From: Promethearchaeota archaeon
GTDB lineage: Archaea; Asgardarchaeota; Lokiarchaeia; Sigyniarchaeales; SOKP01
Assembly: GCA_048940925.1 (NCBI GenBank)
Contig: JBHLOC010000003.1
Coordinates: forward strand, 96,001 to 160,000
DNA length: 64,000 bases
Reading direction: 5' to 3'
In this document: positions 9,179 through 27,687 of the stretch, in pieces
Position numbering within the stretch: the first letter of the stretch is position 1
Layout: every line of letters starts with the position of its first letter
Notes under the pieces: model-generated
Database searches by the model: none
Told to the model about the DNA's origin: nothing
The model's input: only the letters and a program-made list of their open reading frames with translations
Position numbers and translations under genes: made by a program

Positions 9179-10369
9179 GTGTTATTAATTAAAATAGATT
9201 ATGCCGAGAGGGTAAAAAGAATTCCTAAATACATTTTTGTTGAGATTGAAAAATTAATATCAGAAAAGAAGAAAAAGGGTATGGATTTTATTTCACTTGG
9301 AATAGGAGATCCTGATTTAGCAACTCCAGAGATTATAATTAATGCATTAATTGAAGAAGTCAAAAATTCAGAGAACCATAATTACCCTTCAAGTATGGGT
9401 GAAGAGGAATTTAGAGAAACCATCGCAAAGTGGTATAAGATAAGATTTAATGTCGAATTAAACCATAATGATGAGATTACAAATGTAATTGGTGGAAAAG
9501 AAGGCGTAGCTAATGTAGCACGAGCCTTCATTAATCCAGGAGATATTGTCCTTTGTCCTAATCCAGGATATCCTGTTTATGAAAATGGTGCAACAAAACT
9601 ATGCGATGCTGAACCTTATCTGATGCCTATAATAAAAGAAAACAATTATCTTCCAGATTTAGAAGCAATTGATACGAAGATTCTTAGAAAAGCAAAATTA
9701 ATGTATTTAAATTATCCGAATAATCCTACGGGTGCAATTGCTTCAAAACAATTTTTAAAAAAGGTTGTTGATTATGCAGAAGACTATAACTTTTTCATAA
9801 TATATGATAATCCATATTCTGAATTTACTTTTGGTGATTATATTGCACCAACAATATTGCAAGTGGATCGGAATCATGTAGAAATAAATAGTGCCTCTAA
9901 GATGTTTAACATGACAGGCTTTCGATGTGGTTGGATGGCGGGTAATAAAGAAATAATACAAGGGATAAGGAAAGTAAAGTCTCAAATTGATTCTGGTTGT
10001 CCAAAATTTATACAAAAAGCAGTAATGAAAGGTTTAAATGAATATAAATCTGAGGAAAAACCTGAAATAGTAAAGAATACCGTAAGAGTGTATGAAAGAA
10101 GAAGGGATATTTTAATTAAGGAATTAAATGATATGGGATGGAGAACAGAGACACCAAAAGCAACCTTTTATGTATGGACACAAATTCCAGAAAAATTTTC
10201 TAAAGAGAATAGCATGGATTTTGTAAAAAAATTGATAGAAGTAGGAGTAGTTGCCACACCTGGGATAGGTTTTGGTCAATATGGAGAGGGATATATGAGG
10301 TTTGCTTTAACTCAACCTGAGGAAAGAATTAAAGAAGCCTTAGAAAGAATTAAGTCTATTCTTGTTTAA
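9179..10369 (+). CDS. PLP-dependent class I/II aminotransferase (LL-diaminopimelate aminotransferase-like)
   Basis: LGIGDPD, YLNYPNNPTG, DNPY, SASKMFNMTGFRCG (PLP Lys) and PGIGFG..GEGYMR motifs. Confidence 0.9.
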   Translation: MLLIKIDYAERVKRIPKYIFVEIEKLISEKKKKGMDFISLGIGDPDLATPEIIINALIEEVKNSENHNYPSSMGEEEFRETIAKWYKIRFNVELNHNDEITNVIGGKEGVANVARAFINPGDIVLCPNPGYPVYENGATKLCDAEPYLMPIIKENNYLPDLEAIDTKILRKAKLMYLNYPNNPTGAIASKQFLKKVVDYAEDYNFFIIYDNPYSEFTFGDYIAPTILQVDRNHVEINSASKMFNMTGFRCGWMAGNKEIIQGIRKVKSQIDSGCPKFIQKAVMKGLNEYKSEEKPEIVKNTVRVYERRRDILIKELNDMGWRTETPKATFYVWTQIPEKFSKENSMDFVKKLIEVGVVATPGIGFGQYGEGYMRFALTQPEERIKEALERIKSILV

Positions 10370-12220: not shown

Positions 12221-13543
12221 ATGGAAACTAAAATTGTGTTAGTAGGAGCAGGTTCTACTTCTTTTGGCCCCCCAATGTTTAATGATATTTTTTTAAGTGA
12301 TTTATTAGAAGGTTCTACTGTTGTACTCCATGATTTAAATAAGAATAAATTAGAGATGGTCTATGATCTTCTAGAAATTGAAAATCAAAGAAAAAATAAT
12401 AAGCTTAATCTTGAAAGAACAACAAATAGAGCTAAAGCTTTTAAAGATGCTGATTTTATCATTAACTCAATTGAGGTAGGAAATAGAATGGAATTATGGC
12501 ACCAAGATTATGAAATACCGAGAAAATACGGAGCAAAACAAATATTAGGTGAATGTGGTGGTCCAGGAGGGAGTTTTCATGCATGGAGAATAATCCCACC
12601 AATCGTCGAAATTGTTAAAGATGCTGAAAAAATTTGTCCAAATGCTCTTTTGATTAACTTCTCTAATCCATTATCTCGAGTATGTTTAGCGATCAAGAGA
12701 AGTGTGAAAAAGTTAAGATTTGTGGGCTTATGTCATCAAATTGCTTTTTTAGTGAGACATTTGCCTAATATTTTTGAAAAATCAATTAAAGAGTTAAAAA
12801 TGGAAGTAGGTGGCTTAAATCATTTTGCATTCTTATTAAAACTAGAAGATTTAGTAACTGGAATAGATTTAGTGCCAACTTTTAACAAACAAACTCTAGA
12901 TTATTTTAGAGGATATGAACATCGATTTGAATTTTCAACTCTTACATTTGAAGTATTCAAAAAATTTGGGTGGTTTTGTTATGCTGGTGATAACCACCTT
13001 GGAGAATACTTACAATTTGGTGAAGAATTCACGAAAACGCAGGATATGATAGATTGGATAAATTTTATAGACGTTGAAGGTCAATTAATCTATAACAAGT
13101 TTCTTAACTATCATAAAAGACTTAAGAGGGGAAGATATCCAAGGGGGGGTATATTATTTGGAAAAACTTCTGGAGAAAGGGCGATACCTATAATCGAGGC
13201 AATGATCAAAGATAAAAATTCCTATGAATTTGCTGTTAATATTCCTAATGATAATATAATAGCCAATTTACCACAGGATCTAATCTTAGAGTGTTCAGCA
13301 ACAGTAAATAAAAATGGTATTCATGGAATTAAATTAGGAAAAATTCCTAGAAATATTGCTGCTTTACTCCGCATTGAGGCTTCAATACAAGATTTGTGTG
13401 TGGATGCTGTATTGAATAAATCAAAAGATCTTGCCATCGCCTGTTTAGCCACTGATCCTAATGTGGGGAGTTTTGAAATTGCAGAAGATATTTTTGATGA
13501 AATGAGTCAATTACAAAGTAAATATCTTCCAAATTTTAAGTAA
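12221..13543 (+). CDS. Glycoside hydrolase family 4 (NAD+/Mn-dependent alpha-galactosidase/glucosidase)
   Basis: LVGAGS, GECGGPGG, NFSNP, GLCH and GLNH GH4 motifs. Confidence 0.92.
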   Translation: METKIVLVGAGSTSFGPPMFNDIFLSDLLEGSTVVLHDLNKNKLEMVYDLLEIENQRKNNKLNLERTTNRAKAFKDADFIINSIEVGNRMELWHQDYEIPRKYGAKQILGECGGPGGSFHAWRIIPPIVEIVKDAEKICPNALLINFSNPLSRVCLAIKRSVKKLRFVGLCHQIAFLVRHLPNIFEKSIKELKMEVGGLNHFAFLLKLEDLVTGIDLVPTFNKQTLDYFRGYEHRFEFSTLTFEVFKKFGWFCYAGDNHLGEYLQFGEEFTKTQDMIDWINFIDVEGQLIYNKFLNYHKRLKRGRYPRGGILFGKTSGERAIPIIEAMIKDKNSYEFAVNIPNDNIIANLPQDLILECSATVNKNGIHGIKLGKIPRNIAALLRIEASIQDLCVDAVLNKSKDLAIACLATDPNVGSFEIAEDIFDEMSQLQSKYLPNFK

Positions 13544-13658
13544 ATTAGTCCTTTTATAGTAATTAGTTCTAATTTAATTGGATAAATTTCTAAATCTGAT
13601 ATATTTATTAATTTTTGTTTCTATTCTTTTCAAAATACCCTTTAAACTATTTTAAAAA

Positions 13659-16600
13659 ATGAAATCTAACAATAGTAGGGTTTCTGAAGAAAAAATTAAA
13701 AAGGCTACAGAATTCCTCCAAAAATTGTGGTGGTTTTGTTTTTATTTGATTATTGCACCGCTAGCAACTGCATTTACAGGATTTTGGATTTTTAGTTTAT
13801 TTCCTGGAGGAATTTATCTAGCTTTACCTCTAGCAGTTTTAACTTTTATGTTTGCCCTACTATTTTTTTATAAAGCATTTGATAAATATAGAAACAGACC
13901 CTTCTTCTTGAATAAGGAAAACAATCTAGTTGCTAGAATTCATATTTTATATCTTATTTCTATTGTCTCATTTATAGTTACTCCTATATTTGTTATTATT
14001 TCTCCTGAAGATTATTCCTTTGCAATACTTCCTTTAATTAGCTTTATTGTCTTATATAACATAGTATATTTTTATTATTATTTCCAGCCAATTGGGTTCT
14101 ATGACATAAATCAGGAGAAATTCAGACATACAATCAATCTAAAATTGATGATTAAGCAACCGTACAATTTTATGATTGTAATTAATTATGTTGTTCATAT
14201 CGTATTTCTAGCAGTTACCTTTTCTACAGAGCTATCCTGGCTTTTTAGTCTTATAACAAATTTAATATTTTATTACATCACATATTTCAATACTAAAATC
14301 CAGCGTAGTAAAATAAAAGAGAAAATTAAAGAAAAGGAATCATTTTTACAAGATCTAACTATTTTCAAACAAAGATTTGCTGTCTCAGTACTTAATCTAA
14401 TTTTCGTTTTATTAATTCAAATGCCTTTTGTGGTTGTTTTTACTTCAGTTCTATCAGGCTCTCAGTATTCAGTATTAGAATTGATAAATAGTTCATTTTT
14501 AACATTAATTTTTATAATAGCGTATTTTAAATCCCGATTTTATCTCCTTTTTCATTATAGTAGGATATTAAGCATATATCATCATTCTGAAAGAAGTTAT
14601 AATATTAATAATGATGTAGAAAATAATAAATATCAAAAGTATAATGCTGCTTTATCTGTAGTATTAATATTGTTCATAATTCTATTTTGTTTTTTGATAA
14701 GTAATCCAATATTAATATTACTTATACTTCCATTCCTTTACATCCCATTTTATTATGAACAAAAGGCGAAATTTAGTCCAAAGAAATATAATAAATATGT
14801 TTTTTTACTAAACTCCATTGGGATTTTAATTTCTATTTCATTTGGAATTCTACCTCTAATCTCAACAGTTTTTTTTATAAATATTCAATTTATTGTCTTT
14901 TTAATATCTTTATATCTTATACTTCAAATTTTTGTAAAATATGATTACTTCCATAAAGAGGATATCATTATATTTCAAAATATAATTGCGGTTATCACTT
15001 TTTCGTTGATAACATACTCCTTCTTTCCTATTATAATTATTAACTATATTAGATTTACATCAGATCCAGTAATTATAATATTTTCAAATTTTTTACTTCA
15101 TTCAACTTTTATTTTAATAATTTTATTAGTTTCATTTTATATTTTATACTCCAGGATATTTTATGCTAAACGGACAAAACTCTTTAGAATATGTATTTTT
15201 ACTAACATTTTCTTAATAGAATTGCTCATTTTTATTTTAATAAATTTAAGAGCATATTTAATTCTTGAAATTTTTCCTTTTTTCCAGGTGGTAATGGTAT
15301 CGTCTATTCTATTTCCTATAATTTTCATTCTCTTTATTTTTATGAATTTTCTAATAGGATTGTTTTCTTATAACGACTTTTTAAACTATAGCTATTACTC
15401 ATTATGGATACTAATTTTTGATATTTTTCTAGCGATACTTATAAATTCTTTAGATAGTTTTATAGTCTTGACATTAGATCTGCTCCTTTTATCAATTTTT
15501 AGCTACCTTAACTTAAAGTATGCATTCAAAATAGAAAAAATAAAGGAATCTACATTCAAAAAGTTTGTAGAATTTAATTCTTACTTAATGACGATAGAAC
15601 TTGCTACATTGATTTTCTTTTTCTTTTACTCTATTGTGTTAGTAAATTTAACTATATATCAAAATATAGTATTTTCCATTTATTTCTCGTTAATAATTAT
15701 GACTATATTCGTAAATTTATTCTCTAGAAATGAATTTTTCTTTTCAAAATCAGTGAGCATTAAGACTAATTTAATTACGCTAGGATTTAGCGCAGGATTA
15801 ACCTTTTATTATTCATATATTCTCACTCTAAACACATTTTATGTTCTATTAATTCCCTTTATGTGTTTTTTCTTTGTTTTATTTTTTCCAATATATTACC
15901 TATTAAAAATGAAAATTTACGAGAATCTCTCACGCAAATTCTTATTGATGGATTGTATCCTAATAGCTGGGAGCATCACACTAATCCCACCTATTATCAG
16001 TTTAGACCACTATTTTAGATTAGGATTACCTAGTAATCCCATATCCGTAGTGAATTATTCACTATACATCGTGTTTGGAATTCTAATTTTTACATATTAT
16101 CTAATAAGACACTATCATATGAAAGATATATACACTTCAAGGATTCTAAAAACTCAAGCTATAATAGAAGTGATCTTAGCTGGAACGACAGTTTTCTATT
16201 ATATATTCCTTCTGCTCTATGGGACTCTCTATGGATTATTTTTATCTTTAATTGCTGCGTCAATTTTCTTTTATTTACCAAGCGTATATTCTTATAAAAA
16301 AAGATTGTTTAATGAGAATGTCCTTAAGAAAATCATAGTAGGTAATAGTTTAATACTATCAGGATTAATCACTTCAATTCCTACTTTTGTTGGATTAGAA
16401 ATGGAAAGATTAGGCTTAAGCATCCATATTATCCATATTACTACTATTACTCTTTTTCTTTTTTTTGGAACTCTAAAATTCTTAAGCTTTTTATCTCATA
16501 AGTTTTCATTAAAAGAAAAAAGTATTAGTTTTCTAAAATTAGTTCAAATTTTTACTTGGTTAACAATTTCAATCTTTTTAGCAATAGAGTTACCTATAAT

Positions 16601-19600
16601 TTTTTCTTTTCAATATTTTAGCCTCTTTATTATTAGCAATTCATGCCTGATATTTTTTATTGTGAATATTTATACAGTGATCCTGCTATTTAATTATTCC
16701 AAAGAATTAAAGATTCATAGATATTTACGTGACATTCTTTTGTATGGCATAACTTTCTCTTTATCATTTGTATTTGTATTTTTAATTCATGATAGCACTA
16801 TTTTAAATTTATTTCCTTCTATATTAAGACAATATAATTTGGTCTGGTATCTTGGTCTCTTTTTTCTACTTGTTTTAATTTTGCTTAAGATATTTACAAA
16901 TTTCATAGAAGTAGGATTTAAAAAACTTAAAGATGGATTAGAATTCATCTCATGGCTTTTTACTAAAGTTATTGTATGTCTTTTTCTTATATTTATATTT
17001 TCCTATACAATTTTTACACAAATTATGTTGTATATACTGACTTTTACATTTTTAACCCCTATTACTCTCGCTTATCTTAAAAAACTGGATCTTTTTTCCG
17101 AAGGAAATCAATTAATAATAAAAAAATTGACTGTTATTTTATTTTCTATTTCATTATTGAGTTTTTATATTGAAATATTCTACATTTCATCAAATAGTAT
17201 CTTATTCTTTAATCAAAATCCAGGATTTCAAATTTCAATTATAGTTGCTAATGTAATTTTGTTTTTGAGTTATCTTTGGATAGAAGTTAATGAGATTATA
17301 GAAAATATATCAGATTATAAAATATTCGGCTTTTATCTACTGTCTATCCTATTATTTATAAGTTTACTTTACTTCAATTCTATGCTTTCTATTTTTCTTT
17401 TTATTCTATCCTACACCCTTATTCTATCAAAAAGAAGTTTATTCCCATTATTTAGATTTCTATCATATCTTATACTAAGTTTCATCACATTAATAAAAAT
17501 TATAGCTCTACTTGATTATTATGAAATCAAATTTGAGTTTAACCTTATCTTTATCGGACTTTCTTTTAATATATATTTACTAACTTTTATCTCTGTCCTA
17601 TTGACTTCAGTTTTGTTAAATTATAAGAAAAATAATCTTCTCGAAAAATTCTCATTATATACATCTTTTTCAATATTAGCATTTGTATATCTTATTACAT
17701 ATACACATATTTTGATTCTTTATGATTTAACCATTTCAGCTTTTATCTTCTTACTTGTAGTTGGCATTCATTATTATCGTGAAAAGGATGAAATCTATAA
17801 ATGGTTTATAAAACCATGCATCTTGTTGTTTTTATTCGATTTTATCAGTTTTATATCATATTCATTACTTTTTAATCATCCACCTTATTTAGATTTCTAT
17901 CCTATACTTACTTTTACTTTAACTATGAGTGTGACTGGATTTGGATTTGTACTTCTGTACAATAAATCATCTGAAAGATTTAGAAAGATTTCATTTATTA
18001 TTAATTTATTATCAGTTATACTATCGTTTCCAATCTTTATTTATTTCTTAATTAGTTCTTCTTTATCAATTCCGTTTGGAGACCCTATTCCAATAATAAT
18101 TGCAATTAACCTGAGTGTTCTTCTTTTTTATATTTCCATAGGAATCTATCAATGGAAGATATCTTGGATGATTTGGAAATCAGGTTGGTATGCTTGGATA
18201 ATTATACCGTTAGCAAATTTTTATATAATATATAGAGGGCTAACAGGTATAGATGTAGCTACAAATTCGTTAGAATTGTTCGGTATTTATGATTTTAGTG
18301 GTTCTTTAATTATCAGTATAATAATATGCTCTCTAATGTTCTTACCCGTATTATATACTAAAATAAAGAAATATTTTTTTCATATAATATTTATTATTTG
18401 GGCTGAAAGTTTATTTTTATTGTATTGGATTAGCCAAAATCTATTTGTTGCTGATATTTTATTGAGAAATATATTTTTCATTCTATTTTCTGTGGTTTTA
18501 TTATTCCCCGCATTCGCCATTTTTAAATATTGGAAAATTGCATCAATAATATGGTTATTATCATTATTAGTAAATGCCTTTTTTTGGCAGTTTTACTTAA
18601 TGTCTCTAAACATATCATTAGAAATTGCAAGTTCAATTAATATATTAATAATTGGATTATGTCTAATTGTTTATTCATTTTTTCCGAATATTAGGTCTAT
18701 AGGTTTAATATTAATTATATCATATTTTACAGTTTTAATAGGTATATTCTTAACAGTGTATTTTATATTATATTCTGTCATTTTAAATCCAATATTTTCA
18801 GTTAATATTAGCTTAATTGTGGTAGGTTTAAGTCTTTTTTCTAATAAATATCTAAAATTACGTAATAGACCAATAGATTTATTTCTTTCTTGGATATTAA
18901 TATTAAATTTTGCTTGGTTAACCTTCAATACATTCAGTTTACTGCCAATTCCTGGATTTTTATTATTTTCCTTTTTCATAGCATTAACAGTTTTTGGCAC
19001 TTCTTTTTTTGTTTTTAATCATTTCAAGATGAACATTCCAATTAATACAGTAATTCCTTATCTAGTGGTTACCATAGGTGCTTCATCTTCAATATCATTA
19101 CTCTTCTTAATCTTTTTCAATATTTCAATTGGAATTTTTATTACAATTTTTTCAATCATTTTTATTATCTTTATCTATTTCTTAATAACAGAATATCGAT
19201 ATATTCTCTGGTTTTTATTTCCAATTCCAATTACATTACCCATTTTAGAGATGATTTTAGTTTTTGAAGTAGTTAGACCTTTTTGGTATTTAACATGGGC
19301 TCTTTTGTATTTAGTAAGTTTTCAAATTTTAACTAATCTTTTTAAAAATTTAGTAAAAGAAGAGAAAGCTGAAATTAAAAATAGTATTTTGAAGTTATAT
19401 GAGGATAAGACTCAGGTTAAATGGCTTAATTTCACATGTTACATCCTTAATTCTTTACTCATCTCTTTATTAATTGGAATTATATTACCACTTACATTAA
19501 GACAACTTTTATTTACCCAGATATTAATTATTTATCAAATTTTGGATTTTCTTATAATTTGGTCAATTCTCTTCTTATTATGTTTAAGATATGTTATCAA

Positions 19601-22178
19601 ATCTGAAATTGAATTTAAGGTACAAGACACACTTCTCTATATTAATCATATTTCCTTAATACTATATCTAATTATACCTGCCGGTTTAAGTCTTAATTTC
19701 TTTATTTATTCAATATTTATAAGTTTAAATCCTATCGTATCAATTTATCTTTGTATTTTAATTTTAAGTGGGGGTGTACTTTTCGAAACTTTCATCATCG
19801 ATAGACATAGTTTCTATTATCTATTCAATTCAACCCGAAACAAATTCATACTTTTATCATGGTTCATATTTTGTAATACTTTATCTATTTTCTTGTTCCA
19901 TTTTCATTTAAATTTACTCTTATTAATGTTAACAATATCAGTGTTGAACCTAATTTCTATTTACTTCTTATCTTATTTAGATATCTCACGTCATAAAATT
20001 TCTATATATCGGGTAATCCTCTATTATAATACATTTATCTGGGGATCTTTTTACTTAGCATCCTTACTATCTGATGGTTTATTATTAATATTTCACGAAT
20101 TAGAAGAATTAGTATACTACTCCTTATTTGTTCAAAATGCTTCTTTTTTATTATTTCTTTTAAGCAACATTTTCATTAAAGTGGAGGAAAGAGTTAAAAA
20201 AAGAGTTGAATTGAGCCTAATTCTTTCTTTTCAGATATTTCTTGCCATTAACTGGATAATACTATTGATTACATATAATATTTTAACTTTTTTCCTCATC
20301 TTTTTGTTAGTATTAATCGAAACATGTATATCGTTTGTATCAGTTTATTACTTTGATTTTATTTTCACTAAAGAAAAGTTTCCTGAATTCAAAACGAAAT
20401 TTTATTCTTTCTTAGTTTTGATATTGTATATTGAAATCAGTTTAATGACTTTTGGGTTGCTGTTTGAAAGGTTAGGTATTTTTGAAAGTATAATCATTTC
20501 ACAATTAATACTTTTCATCTTAACATTATTAGATATATATTTTCTAAAGAAGATTAACAAAAGTTATGGGAATTTCATTCATACTATATGTTATTTTATA
20601 ATATCATTATTTACATTGTTAAGTATAAATCAGTTTATTCGGCAATATCCAATTTTGCTAAGTTTAGAATTTATGATTTTTATAATAATGCAAGTTTATA
20701 CGAATTATTCCTTATTTACTGCGTTGAATCATCTTTATCCTGATAAAAAGGAATCTCTCATTAAACATAGAGCCTATATAACCCATGTATTAGGAGTATG
20801 TTTTTATTTTATTCTATTTTTTCTTTTGCTCCAAGGTTTATTATTATTAGAAGTTAATCCCCAATTAGTATTTTTAAGTTTAAGCTTGATGGTTCATATT
20901 CTAATGATACTTGATCTTTACATAATTAGACTTTTAGGAAAAATAGCAAATTATTTTCGATTAATTTCTTGGATTTTCATAATGATCTTTACCACATCTT
21001 ATTTAATATGGCTTTATGTTGATTATTTTATCCAATTGCTAGCTACCTCTATACCACTCATAATTCTAATCTTAATAATAGAGACTGCCTATCTATTCTA
21101 TCTATTAAGTTTTTCGAAATATATCGTCTCAAACAAAAAGAAAATTAGGTTTCTTTTAATATTAGTTTTATACTTGGACGTTGTAATTTGGCCATTATTT
21201 TATCTTACTTTTAATCTATTGCATGTGCTTAATTTGATAGTTATTTCGAGTATAATTTTGTTTGTTTTAACTTATATTGATAAATATGTGGGTGTATTTG
21301 AAGACAAATCATTATCAAATCTTAGAAAGAGCGTTTTTTTAATAATTAGAGTTTTATTTTCGGTTGATGTCTACATACTCTTAGGATTTGTCCCAAACAC
21401 CAATTTTTTCTTAAATATAAGTGTAGCTCTTTTAATTCTTGTGTTTTTCTTAGGTATTGTGGTTAAACCGTTTAAAGAACATTCTTTTAAGGCTTTTGCT
21501 TTTTGGTTTGTGTTTTCTTTATTATTAAGTTCAATATTATTGCAAGTATCATTAAATTATGCACTTAGTGGAGCAATTCTTTTCATAACAATGCTTATTT
21601 ATCCTTTTGTATTTTTATTAGAAGAATTACGAGAACTTTTCAGTAAATTTTTAGATGCGCTTGTTATCTTCTTAAGAAAAATCAAGCAAGCAATAGTTAA
21701 TATCCTGAATAAAATTTCTAAGTTTTTAAAGACATATTATAAATTGATTTGGATTTTATTCAGTTTATTCATATCTCCCTATTGTGGTTTACTTTTATCT
21801 CCATTGTTTTTAAATTATTTAAGTTGGTATCATTCAATTTTAGTAACCATTGCTATGTTTGGTTTGTTATATTTAGTGATACCGTCTAAAAAGTCAAAAG
21901 ATCCCGATATCATTTTTAAGAGAAGAATGATACGTTTCACAGTTGGTTGGGGAAGTGCAATTACAGTTATTTTTATGTTTATAACTCCAATTTATTATAT
22001 CCTTACTGTTTTTATAGCAATCGCCGTAATTGGAACATTTGTTTTAGTGTATATGGGAAGAAAAGAAGAGAGAGAAAAATTATCTGTCAAATGGAGATTT
22101 TATACTCTTATCACACTTTTTATAGCATTTATTTTCTTTGGAATAATGCTTGTATTACAACTTATATTTGGGTTTTAA
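13659..22178 (+). CDS. Giant (2839 aa) polytopic membrane protein of unknown function
   Basis: 8.5-kb uninterrupted ORF of alternating ~20-aa hydrophobic segments and short basic loops; internal 130-aa repeat. Confidence 0.85.
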   Translation: MKSNNSRVSEEKIKKATEFLQKLWWFCFYLIIAPLATAFTGFWIFSLFPGGIYLALPLAVLTFMFALLFFYKAFDKYRNRPFFLNKENNLVARIHILYLISIVSFIVTPIFVIISPEDYSFAILPLISFIVLYNIVYFYYYFQPIGFYDINQEKFRHTINLKLMIKQPYNFMIVINYVVHIVFLAVTFSTELSWLFSLITNLIFYYITYFNTKIQRSKIKEKIKEKESFLQDLTIFKQRFAVSVLNLIFVLLIQMPFVVVFTSVLSGSQYSVLELINSSFLTLIFIIAYFKSRFYLLFHYSRILSIYHHSERSYNINNDVENNKYQKYNAALSVVLILFIILFCFLISNPILILLILPFLYIPFYYEQKAKFSPKKYNKYVFLLNSIGILISISFGILPLISTVFFINIQFIVFLISLYLILQIFVKYDYFHKEDIIIFQNIIAVITFSLITYSFFPIIIINYIRFTSDPVIIIFSNFLLHSTFILIILLVSFYILYSRIFYAKRTKLFRICIFTNIFLIELLIFILINLRAYLILEIFPFFQVVMVSSILFPIIFILFIFMNFLIGLFSYNDFLNYSYYSLWILIFDIFLAILINSLDSFIVLTLDLLLLSIFSYLNLKYAFKIEKIKESTFKKFVEFNSYLMTIELATLIFFFFYSIVLVNLTIYQNIVFSIYFSLIIMTIFVNLFSRNEFFFSKSVSIKTNLITLGFSAGLTFYYSYILTLNTFYVLLIPFMCFFFVLFFPIYYLLKMKIYENLSRKFLLMDCILIAGSITLIPPIISLDHYFRLGLPSNPISVVNYSLYIVFGILIFTYYLIRHYHMKDIYTSRILKTQAIIEVILAGTTVFYYIFLLLYGTLYGLFLSLIAASIFFYLPSVYSYKKRLFNENVLKKIIVGNSLILSGLITSIPTFVGLEMERLGLSIHIIHITTITLFLFFGTLKFLSFLSHKFSLKEKSISFLKLVQIFTWLTISIFLAIELPIIFSFQYFSLFIISNSCLIFFIVNIYTVILLFNYSKELKIHRYLRDILLYGITFSLSFVFVFLIHDSTILNLFPSILRQYNLVWYLGLFFLLVLILLKIFTNFIEVGFKKLKDGLEFISWLFTKVIVCLFLIFIFSYTIFTQIMLYILTFTFLTPITLAYLKKLDLFSEGNQLIIKKLTVILFSISLLSFYIEIFYISSNSILFFNQNPGFQISIIVANVILFLSYLWIEVNEIIENISDYKIFGFYLLSILLFISLLYFNSMLSIFLFILSYTLILSKRSLFPLFRFLSYLILSFITLIKIIALLDYYEIKFEFNLIFIGLSFNIYLLTFISVLLTSVLLNYKKNNLLEKFSLYTSFSILAFVYLITYTHILILYDLTISAFIFLLVVGIHYYREKDEIYKWFIKPCILLFLFDFISFISYSLLFNHPPYLDFYPILTFTLTMSVTGFGFVLLYNKSSERFRKISFIINLLSVILSFPIFIYFLISSSLSIPFGDPIPIIIAINLSVLLFYISIGIYQWKISWMIWKSGWYAWIIIPLANFYIIYRGLTGIDVATNSLELFGIYDFSGSLIISIIICSLMFLPVLYTKIKKYFFHIIFIIWAESLFLLYWISQNLFVADILLRNIFFILFSVVLLFPAFAIFKYWKIASIIWLLSLLVNAFFWQFYLMSLNISLEIASSINILIIGLCLIVYSFFPNIRSIGLILIISYFTVLIGIFLTVYFILYSVILNPIFSVNISLIVVGLSLFSNKYLKLRNRPIDLFLSWILILNFAWLTFNTFSLLPIPGFLLFSFFIALTVFGTSFFVFNHFKMNIPINTVIPYLVVTIGASSSISLLFLIFFNISIGIFITIFSIIFIIFIYFLITEYRYILWFLFPIPITLPILEMILVFEVVRPFWYLTWALLYLVSFQILTNLFKNLVKEEKAEIKNSILKLYEDKTQVKWLNFTCYILNSLLISLLIGIILPLTLRQLLFTQILIIYQILDFLIIWSILFLLCLRYVIKSEIEFKVQDTLLYINHISLILYLIIPAGLSLNFFIYSIFISLNPIVSIYLCILILSGGVLFETFIIDRHSFYYLFNSTRNKFILLSWFIFCNTLSIFLFHFHLNLLLLMLTISVLNLISIYFLSYLDISRHKISIYRVILYYNTFIWGSFYLASLLSDGLLLIFHELEELVYYSLFVQNASFLLFLLSNIFIKVEERVKKRVELSLILSFQIFLAINWIILLITYNILTFFLIFLLVLIETCISFVSVYYFDFIFTKEKFPEFKTKFYSFLVLILYIEISLMTFGLLFERLGIFESIIISQLILFILTLLDIYFLKKINKSYGNFIHTICYFIISLFTLLSINQFIRQYPILLSLEFMIFIIMQVYTNYSLFTALNHLYPDKKESLIKHRAYITHVLGVCFYFILFFLLLQGLLLLEVNPQLVFLSLSLMVHILMILDLYIIRLLGKIANYFRLISWIFIMIFTTSYLIWLYVDYFIQLLATSIPLIILILIIETAYLFYLLSFSKYIVSNKKKIRFLLILVLYLDVVIWPLFYLTFNLLHVLNLIVISSIILFVLTYIDKYVGVFEDKSLSNLRKSVFLIIRVLFSVDVYILLGFVPNTNFFLNISVALLILVFFLGIVVKPFKEHSFKAFAFWFVFSLLLSSILLQVSLNYALSGAILFITMLIYPFVFLLEELRELFSKFLDALVIFLRKIKQAIVNILNKISKFLKTYYKLIWILFSLFISPYCGLLLSPLFLNYLSWYHSILVTIAMFGLLYLVIPSKKSKDPDIIFKRRMIRFTVGWGSAITVIFMFITPIYYILTVFIAIAVIGTFVLVYMGRKEEREKLSVKWRFYTLITLFIAFIFFGIMLVLQLIFGF

Positions 22179-26237: not shown

Positions 26238-26990
26238 GTGCTTAGTATTATGGGTGTTATTTTAGAAGTTAAAAATTTAACTAAAAAATACAGCGGACTA
26301 ACAGCAGTTAATGATTTCAGTTTTGAAATTAAAAGAGGAGAATTTGTTGGACTAATTGGTCCAAACGGAGCTGGAAAGACTACTGTATTTAATTTAATTT
26401 CTGGATTTGAAAAACCAAATTCAGGCACAATTAGATTTGATGGACGAAATATTACAGGCATGGACTCTTATAAATTAGTTAATTTAGGTCTAGCGAGAAC
26501 CTTTCAACTTGTTAGGTCTTTTAAATTTATGACTCTTCTTGATAATATTTCTGTGTCTTGCTTATCTTCAAGAGGAAAAAAAGTTGCCCATGATTATGGA
26601 ATTGAAGAATATGCTAGTACAATTCTAGCCTCAGTAGGACTGGTAGATAAAGCTAGGATCCCTCCCGTTATATTACCTCACGGAGATCTGAGAAAGCTAC
26701 AGATAGGTAAGGCCTTAGGTTCCAATCCTCAATTGCTACTTCTTGATGAGCCTTTTAGCGGGCTTTCTCATGAAGAACAAGATGTTATAACTGATTTAAT
26801 AAAAAAATTAAATGATGATGGAGTTACCATTTTTATTACAGGACACGTATTACGAGAATTAATGCATCTTGTACCAAGAGTAATAGCGATGCATCAAGGT
26901 AAATTTATTACTGAAGGAACTCCTCAAGAAGTTGCGAATAATAAAATTGTGGTAGAGGCTTATTTAGGAAAAGGTGGAAAATTTGCTTGA
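26238..26990 (+). CDS. livG: HAAT ABC ATP-binding protein LivG
   Basis: GPNGAGKTT, ARTFQ, LLLLDEP and EAYLG motifs. Confidence 0.93.
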   Translation: MLSIMGVILEVKNLTKKYSGLTAVNDFSFEIKRGEFVGLIGPNGAGKTTVFNLISGFEKPNSGTIRFDGRNITGMDSYKLVNLGLARTFQLVRSFKFMTLLDNISVSCLSSRGKKVAHDYGIEEYASTILASVGLVDKARIPPVILPHGDLRKLQIGKALGSNPQLLLLDEPFSGLSHEEQDVITDLIKKLNDDGVTIFITGHVLRELMHLVPRVIAMHQGKFITEGTPQEVANNKIVVEAYLGKGGKFA

Positions 26991-27687
26991 AATAAAAAAA
27001 ATATATCATTATTATGGAAAGGCTAAAGCTCTTGAAGAAATTAATTTAAAAATCGAAGAAGAGGCTCTTGATGCAGTAATAGGGCCAAATGGAGCTGGAA
27101 AAAGCACGCTTCTACGAGTGATTTCTGGACTTGAAGAACCAGATAGAGGAAAAATTGAATTTCTTGGTGAGAGAATTGATGAGTTAAAAGCTCATAAAAT
27201 TGCTAGAAAAGGTATCGGTCACTGTCCAGAACGACGTAGATTATTCTATGATATGTCTGTTATGGAAAACCTTGAGATGGGGGCCTATTCCCTAAAAGAT
27301 AGGAAGAAATTTAAACAAATGTTGAATTTTGTATTTGAATTATTCCCTCGTTTGGAAGAAAGAAAGAAACAACGAGCAGGAACATTAAGCGGTGGGGAAC
27401 AACAAATGCTTGCCATCGCACGTGCAATCATGTCAAGTCCAAAATTACTATTAATGGACGAACCTTCATTAGGGTTAGCTCCCAAGGTTAAAGAAAAAAT
27501 ATTTGAAGCTATAGAACAAATTAAAAACGAAGGAACAACAACTTTATTGGTTGAACAAGATGCTGTACTTGCTATGGAGGTTGCTCAAAATATTCATGTT
27601 CTTGAAGAAGGAAAAATAGAGATGAGAGGAACAAAAGAGGAATTAGAAAGAGAACCTCGAATAAAACAAGTATATTTAGGAATTTAG
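26974..27687 (+). CDS. livF: HAAT ABC ATP-binding protein LivF
   Basis: GPNGAGKST, LSGGEQQMLA, DEPSLGLAP and LVEQ motifs. Confidence 0.93.
   Translation: MENLLEIKKIYHYYGKAKALEEINLKIEEEALDAVIGPNGAGKSTLLRVISGLEEPDRGKIEFLGERIDELKAHKIARKGIGHCPERRRLFYDMSVMENLEMGAYSLKDRKKFKQMLNFVFELFPRLEERKKQRAGTLSGGEQQMLAIARAIMSSPKLLLMDEPSLGLAPKVKEKIFEAIEQIKNEGTTTLLVEQDAVLAMEVAQNIHVLEEGKIEMRGTKEELEREPRIKQVYLGI

Follow-up and report, generated by a model that had tools for sequence, protein, structure and literature searches.

The window analysed here, a 64,000-nucleotide (nt) stretch of DNA from a Promethearchaeota archaeon of the class Lokiarchaeia (GenBank assembly GCA_048940925.1, contig JBHLOC010000003.1, positions 96,001 to 160,000 of the forward strand), carries at 13659..22178 on the plus strand a single open frame of 2,839 codons. 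We find this to be a genuine, selected gene for a giant polytopic membrane protein of 2839 amino acids (aa), P0001. No other frame at 13659-22178 is long, the remaining five containing 158–390 stops, and with a stop probability of 0.074 per random codon at the local base composition, 2,839 stop-free codons would be expected with a probability of ~1e-95. Full-length homologues share 33–82% identity with P0001. Against the two closest orthologues (L004 and L005, 86–87% identical in the core described below), the ratio of non-synonymous to synonymous substitution rates (dN/dS), taken along aa 800–2400, is 0.16–0.18 in the core and 0.19–0.23 in the flanking parts of the arms. Since dN/dS is ~0.2 while dS, at ~0.4–0.5, is unsaturated, the gene is real and under purifying selection along this stretch. 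The opposite reading, a non-functional frame, open by chance or left by a repeat that is decaying within AT-rich DNA, can point to the base composition of the region (24% G+C and T-rich), which favours codons for hydrophobic residues, and to shuffled sequences that still yield 59 apparent transmembrane segments. It is refuted by the stop-free probability, by collinear homologues down to 33% identity and by dN/dS, and the transcription of an orthologue speaks against it too; we consider its probability close to nil. Upstream, 48–59 nt 5′ of the ATG, TATATTTATTAA (13600..13611, plus strand) reads as a possible archaeal TATA-like box of the giant gene.

Leucine (17.5%), isoleucine (16.0%) and phenylalanine (12.4%) together make up 46% of the residues of P0001. 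A 19-aa Kyte–Doolittle scan marks 78 hydropathy segments, and the longest stretch outside transmembrane (TM) segments is 61 aa. Shuffled versions of the protein (n=200) give 59±3 segments with a maximum of 67, and charged residues within predicted segments number 25 in the real sequence compared to 60±7 in the shuffles. The charged residues group into ~80 clusters, in which loops rich in lysine and arginine (K/R; 4–9 basic residues) alternate with sites having one Asp/Glu or none. The K/R clusters are spaced ~63–65 aa apart, and the autocorrelation of K/R density peaks at 64, 130, ~195 and ~250 aa. This alternation and the 64-aa period mark the protein as a chain of ~44 helical hairpins that follows the positive-inside rule, with short, K/R-rich cytoplasmic loops and tiny outer loops carrying a lone acidic residue at most. 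A count of K/R in odd- and even-numbered loops, made on a crude TM segmentation, gave 95 versus 96 and hence no asymmetry; because missed helices break the parity of such a count, we set it aside and used the map of charged clusters and the autocorrelation instead. An AlphaFold2 model of aa 1300–1930 (631 aa) holds ~21–22 TM-length helices, ~20% above what the hydropathy scan finds there, and extrapolating this helix density from the core model to the whole chain leads to an estimate of about 85–95 TM helices. An earlier note on this DNA, made from the letters alone, had described an almost wholly transmembrane protein with short K/R-rich loops along its length, no soluble domain and some 70–90 TM helices; the description holds on each count, and the helix number was a fair estimate. 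The same architecture recurs in the 110 homologous clusters that we found, which have 44–99 segments each and no non-membrane stretch above ~130 aa.

P0001 falls into three zones: a variable N-terminal arm (aa 1–1300), a core rich in invariant residues (aa ~1300–1900) and a C-terminal arm (aa ~1900–2839). Conservation within the family is highest at aa 1300–1900. In alignments of 40 core sequences with 21–87% identity, including those of the cultured Prometheoarchaeum syntrophicum MK-D1 and Candidatus (Ca.) L. ossiferum, 15 columns are invariant: F1405, W1506, P1517, N1520, S1549, P1563, W1581, W1590, F1596, P1617, W1625, W1632, F1642, P1676 and Y1689. The core as modelled by AlphaFold2 (aa 1300–1930, 17556..19448, plus strand) is almost all helix, with a predicted local distance difference test score (pLDDT) of 82.7, as is a sub-core of 372 aa that contains the invariant residues (aa 1374–1745, 17778..18893, plus strand; pLDDT 85.1, predicted template-modelling score 0.67). 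The sole broken helices of the models are located in the core, where the invariant Pro and Asn sit inside helices. Two motifs of the core, GIDV.T.SL..FG and SQNLF, are conserved and face outward. The former belongs to a conserved outer loop at aa 1526–1546 (18234..18296, plus strand), for which both models predict a small beta-hairpin (strands at model residues 239–241 and 245–247 in the core, 165–167 and 171–173 in the sub-core); that this loop faces the outside is inferred from the K/R loops on either side of it. When 1.84 billion representative proteins were searched exhaustively with the profile, no stand-alone core came up, all 64 hits being Asgard-labelled giants or contig fragments. A unique and conserved core, with broken helices and invariant W, P, N and G residues, accords better with a functional site than with a spacer. 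The solenoid that the earlier note had inferred is not supported as a uniform one, the middle fifth of the protein being unlike the rest.

Repeats at the sequence level are found in both arms. The earlier note had pointed to a 130-aa duplication with starts at nt 15807 and 16197 (aa 717 and 847) and about four TM helices per unit. BLASTP recovers it at 30% identity (36.6 bits, E 1e-6; shuffles reach at most 23 bits), and so does an hhalign self-comparison of 11 full-length members in collinear alignment (gaps ≤3%, 33–82% identity), which aligns aa 709–1000 with aa 839–1132 at an offset of 130 (score 123; maximum of the reversed control 52). The duplication in fact comprises three tandem units, each made up of two K/R-loop hairpins (~4 TM): unit 1 at aa 705–834 (15771..16160), unit 2 at aa 835–964 (16161..16550) and a more diverged unit 3 at aa 965–1094 (16551..16940), all on the plus strand and scoring 122.6, 135.3 and 62.1 bits, respectively, with a hidden Markov model (HMM) built from the three. 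A second duplication, of 250 aa, lies in the C-terminal arm at aa 1983–2579, where hhalign aligns aa 1983–2331 with aa 2233–2579 (offset 250, score 88, against the same control maximum of 52). Its first block covers aa 1983–2232 (19605..20354, plus strand) and its second aa 2233–2579 (20355..21395, plus strand); BLASTP also pairs aa 2245–2320 with aa 2493–2569 (30.8 bits), and the insertions that relatives carry in this arm cluster at aa 2140–2590. These two zones, aa 705–1094 and aa 1983–2579, are the only ones above control and bring sequence repeats to about one third of the chain. Outside them the hairpin period is all that is held in common, and the unit HMM finds no further units in P0001 above its reversed control. 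Repeated units along the whole length, as the earlier note had it, can thus be upheld for the two zones; the remainder of the chain has no demonstrable repeat beyond hairpin periodicity. An apparent whole-length repeat pattern from a MAFFT alignment of 94 sequences (7,318 columns; hhalign self-score 329) was rejected, since in that alignment the homologues that carry extra units are out of register by one unit. When the unit HMM was run on 87 homologues left out of model building, it found 1–7 tandem units, always in the N-terminal arm.

The arms also vary in length. Relatives are 2,500–4,900 aa long, and their lengths differ solely by insertions and deletions (indels) of roughly 130 to 290 aa in the arms. 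We mapped these by pairwise alignment with 17 longer or shorter homologues. Every indel of at least 25 aa falls at aa 590–910, at aa 2140–2590 or within the N-terminal 550 aa (mostly in the first ~320), and none lies within aa 1140–2140, a span that includes the core. Indel sizes are often near 130 or 250 aa. The N-terminal module itself (aa 1–320, 13659..14618, plus strand; alignment occupancy 0.6) is missing from relatives of 2520–2570 aa. Three relatives, belonging to two genera, encode the first 310–320 aa in a separate open reading frame (ORF) that abuts or overlaps the rest (L035:11960-12919, minus strand; L042:5159-6097, plus strand; L041:3042-3971, plus strand), the split being due to a frame change in L035 and L042 and to an in-frame stop in L041. 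The split point corresponds to the cytoplasmic loop at aa ~311–320 of P0001, and the piece from L035 shares 50% identity with aa 1–311. As many independent database entries of 2520–2545 aa begin at this same point, the split N-terminal ORF looks like the product of real gene fission rather than of sequencing error.

A survey across Asgard archaea, one of the checks that the earlier note had proposed, places the family in 116–118 of 400 genomes, with the core sequence and the sub-core profile in agreement. Matches were obtained in 99–101 of the 134 genomes of one Asgard family (f1), in the only genome of a second (f2), in 12 of the 14 of a third (f3) and in two of the four of a fourth (f4). One of three genomes of a fifth (f5), which belongs to another order of the same class, also has a match, and the other 28 Asgard families, about 245 genomes, have none. 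Among these 400 genomes the protein is thus confined to Lokiarchaeia, two orders of one class. Most genomes with the gene have one copy. The relative in f5 (L144; G123:C195:96-7940, minus strand) is a frame of 2,615 aa in which the hydropathy scan marks 79 segments; it matches the P0001 family at positions 1482–1678 only (hhalign probability 97%, score 110; reversed control 27). L144 is a very distant member that keeps the hub alone, and the restriction of the match to aa 1482–1678 marks this stretch, within the sub-core, as the universal hub of the family.

Exact look-up identifies orthologues in cultured strains and closed genomes: DSAG12_00898 of P. syntrophicum MK-D1 (QEE15075.1, 3,940 aa), NEF87_003094 (4,905 aa) and NEF87_002906 (3,146 aa) of Ca. 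L. ossiferum, and K9W44_04180 (4,296 aa) of Ca. Harpocratesius repetitus. Like P0001 they are all-membrane giants, and they retain all 15 invariant residues at 21–26% identity over aa 1300–1930; unlike it, they are 300–2,000 aa longer and have arms that the N-arm unit model does not recognise. All are annotated as hypothetical proteins, and our literature search found no paper naming their locus tags and no description of the family. In Supplementary Table 3 of Imachi et al. 2020, DSAG12_00898 is listed with 152 reads per kilobase per million (RPKM) and its neighbours with 203–317 (PMC7015854). The identity of the tag is confirmed by the neighbours at the MK-D1 locus (L050), an SPFH/flotillin and an amidohydrolase gene, which are the same as in the table. 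The MK-D1 orthologue of P0001 is therefore transcribed in culture, which answers the question of expression raised in the earlier note for the orthologue, not for the window's own gene. The window's own assembly also holds part of a second copy, at the end of a contig (L002; G000:C90:14950-18405, minus strand), with 50% identity to aa 1679–2835; this may be either a paralogue or a sequence of a contaminating relative, the assembly being 8.4% contaminated.

No characterised family matches. A Pfam search with the whole of P0001 at E≤1 gave one chance row only, Pfam searches with the 40 core sequences gave no shared family, and NCBIfam and PADLOC gave no match for P0001. Against the sequences in the Protein Data Bank (PDB), neither phmmer with the whole protein nor the core profile returned a hit at E≤10; the absence of sequence homology to Piezo, which the earlier note had invoked as an analogy only, agrees with the empty Pfam and PDB searches. 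The structural comparison, made with the AlphaFold2 fragments, was equally negative: Foldseek against the PDB found nothing at E≤1e-3 for the core or sub-core model, and the best Z scores of VIA-align against 48,161 chains were 8.9 and 9.2 (83 residues), obtained on pieces of three helices, that of MrpF for example; the background for models made of helices is higher than this. The Foldseek rows at the top, themselves weak, are arrays of TPR/HEAT hairpins with TM-scores of ~0.2, which hint at stacked hairpins and are no evidence of shape. In the ESM Atlas the nearest clusters, at 0.84–0.85 and thus below a meaningful level, are DUF2339 (0.84) and unnamed multipass proteins. Homology to DUF2339, the family of the bacterial protein Arc3A, was rejected on two grounds. 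At E≤0.01, PF10101 (DUF2339) matches nothing in the order (41 genomes), though control genomes match, and it gives no row for P0001 at E≤1; and the profile of our family compared with an alignment of eight bacterial DUF2339 sequences (L133–L140) reaches an hhalign probability of 0.4% (score 26.9; reversed control 18.2). The partner of Arc3A, Arc3B (PF13163), was not present among the scanned neighbours, a scan that did not include a search aimed at PF13163.

Our tentative explanation is that P0001 organises the membrane without being an enzyme, and that its hub serves for binding or self-association. As it lacks a soluble domain and shows no motif that looks catalytic, its action is most likely not enzymatic, and the lack of a soluble domain in combination with adjustable arms and one invariant hub makes it likelier that it organises, senses or gates than that it catalyses. 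P0001 would be an intramembrane organising or structural element, in which the arms may supply an adjustable length of lipid-facing helix array together with a polycationic strip on the inner leaflet, and the conserved core, bearing the sole conserved outward-facing loops, may be the functional site, either for partner binding or for self-association. Several observations weigh against this explanation. TM-scores to solenoids of just ~0.2 do not favour a ribbon or solenoid shape. Several near-complete f1 genomes, from sister genera, lack the gene, so that these cells do not universally require it and any structural role must be dispensable. The genes around it give no functional clue beyond family-level synteny. 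Finally, the broken helices of the core, the invariant Pro and Asn within helices and the conserved polar outer loops are typical of channels and transporters.

These last features keep the idea of a channel alive. On this reading P0001 would be an independently evolved, Piezo-like channel gated by force or curvature, in which the core, perhaps self-associated, would be the pore and the arms membrane-embedded levers. Piezo1 and Piezo2 are likewise very large polytopic proteins that combine tandem four-helix units with one unique module, as P0001 combines the tandem 4-TM units of its arms with a unique core of broken helices, invariant P, N, W and G residues in helices and conserved outer loops, the hub being moreover the sole part retained in the most distant relative. 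Yet no relation to Piezo is seen in sequence, or in fold for the core and sub-core models, and the two differ in plan. P0001 has more than twice as many helices, it has no extracellular cap, its longest loop being 61 aa, and its unique module is central with two arms rather than C-terminal. Piezo blades are fixed at nine units, whereas in the P0001 family the number of N-arm units varies between species, as does arm length, by a factor of two. We regard such a channel as rather unlikely. If instead the core were the active unit of a transporter or membrane enzyme and the arms accessory mass, its strong conservation and its invariant polar and aromatic residues would be expected; but sequence searches match no family of transporters or enzymes, no fold matches beyond the three-helix pieces noted above, the core never occurs alone among the 1.84 billion representatives and the arms are under purifying selection too, and we think this very improbable.

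It could also be asked whether P0001 is a functional analogue of Arc3A: a large membrane protein without enzymatic activity that keeps the membrane intact by buffering harmful lipids or removing them. Arc3A counters phospholipases of the esterase type, for which archaeal ether lipids are no substrate, and this argues against such an analogue, as do the PF10101 search and the profile–profile comparison. The appearance of DUF2339 among the nearest named language-model clusters is a weak lead in its favour. The shared design principle also speaks for it: Arc3A (P. aeruginosa PA5114) has 35 predicted TM segments and no catalytic residues, and its TM number varies across species (PMC8926400), just as P0001 has many TM helices, no soluble or catalytic domain and variable TM number within its family. 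In contrast to P0001, Arc3A is bacterial, is ~950 aa long with ~35 TM segments and pairs with Arc3B. The likeness is one of design only, descent not being supported, and we judge a common function distinctly unlikely. Giant Omnitrophota proteins with numerous TM regions have been described (bioRxiv 10.1101/2023.11.21.568195); like P0001 they are prokaryotic giants with many predicted TM helices, but they are mostly extracellular and multidomain (SecA-like, peptidase and carbohydrate-active), whereas P0001 has no domain outside the membrane.

Taken to its furthest, the membrane-organising explanation would make the family a new class of membrane protein, a length-adjustable array of ~44–65 hairpins around a hub that organises or senses the Lokiarchaeial membrane (its curvature, domains or protrusions), with the arms as a species-tuned ruler or lever, and not a conventional channel, pump or enzyme. 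We offer this bolder version as a speculation that is, on present grounds, quite unlikely to hold in full. Piezo has 38 membrane spans per chain, and if the prediction holds, these proteins would have two to three times as many, with next to nothing beyond the bilayer and with neither a relative that can be detected nor a known fold that matches the modelled core. They occur solely in the archaeal class to which the cultured, protrusion-forming relatives of eukaryotes belong, and in one of these the gene is transcribed. The family raises the questions of how such a chain inserts and folds, what a nearly pure-bilayer protein can do, and whether Lokiarchaeia have a membrane-organising or force-sensing machinery of their own. 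As the gene is carried by cultured strains, proteomics, cryo-electron tomography and structural work are feasible now.

On the 5′ side of the giant gene and in the same orientation, the window holds genes for a class I/II aminotransferase (9179-10369) and a GH4 glycosidase (12221-13543). The aminotransferase is found 5′ of the giant gene in 12 of 21 loci and GH4 in seven of 21, all within f1, and this linkage probably reflects inherited synteny rather than a functional link. On the other side, a conserved protein of ~180 aa is encoded at L043:14020-14562 (plus strand) and at six other f1 loci, on the same strand and 360–1,540 nt 3′ of the giant gene; it has no Pfam match and is not encoded at that position in the window. 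None of these three neighbours is common to the f3 loci (L048–L052). At the MK-D1 locus the SPFH/Band 7 gene (L050:1747-2979, plus strand), which encodes a flotillin-like protein of membrane microdomains, lies 243 nt 5′ of the orthologue on the same strand; no such neighbour was seen in the window or at the remaining four f3 loci. Further downstream in the window, at 26974-27687 (plus strand), a branched-chain amino-acid transporter operon includes a LivF-type ABC ATPase, whose best relatives, in a comparison that may lack close Asgard records, are bacterial (Syntrophaceae, Anaerolineae and others; 50–53% identity).

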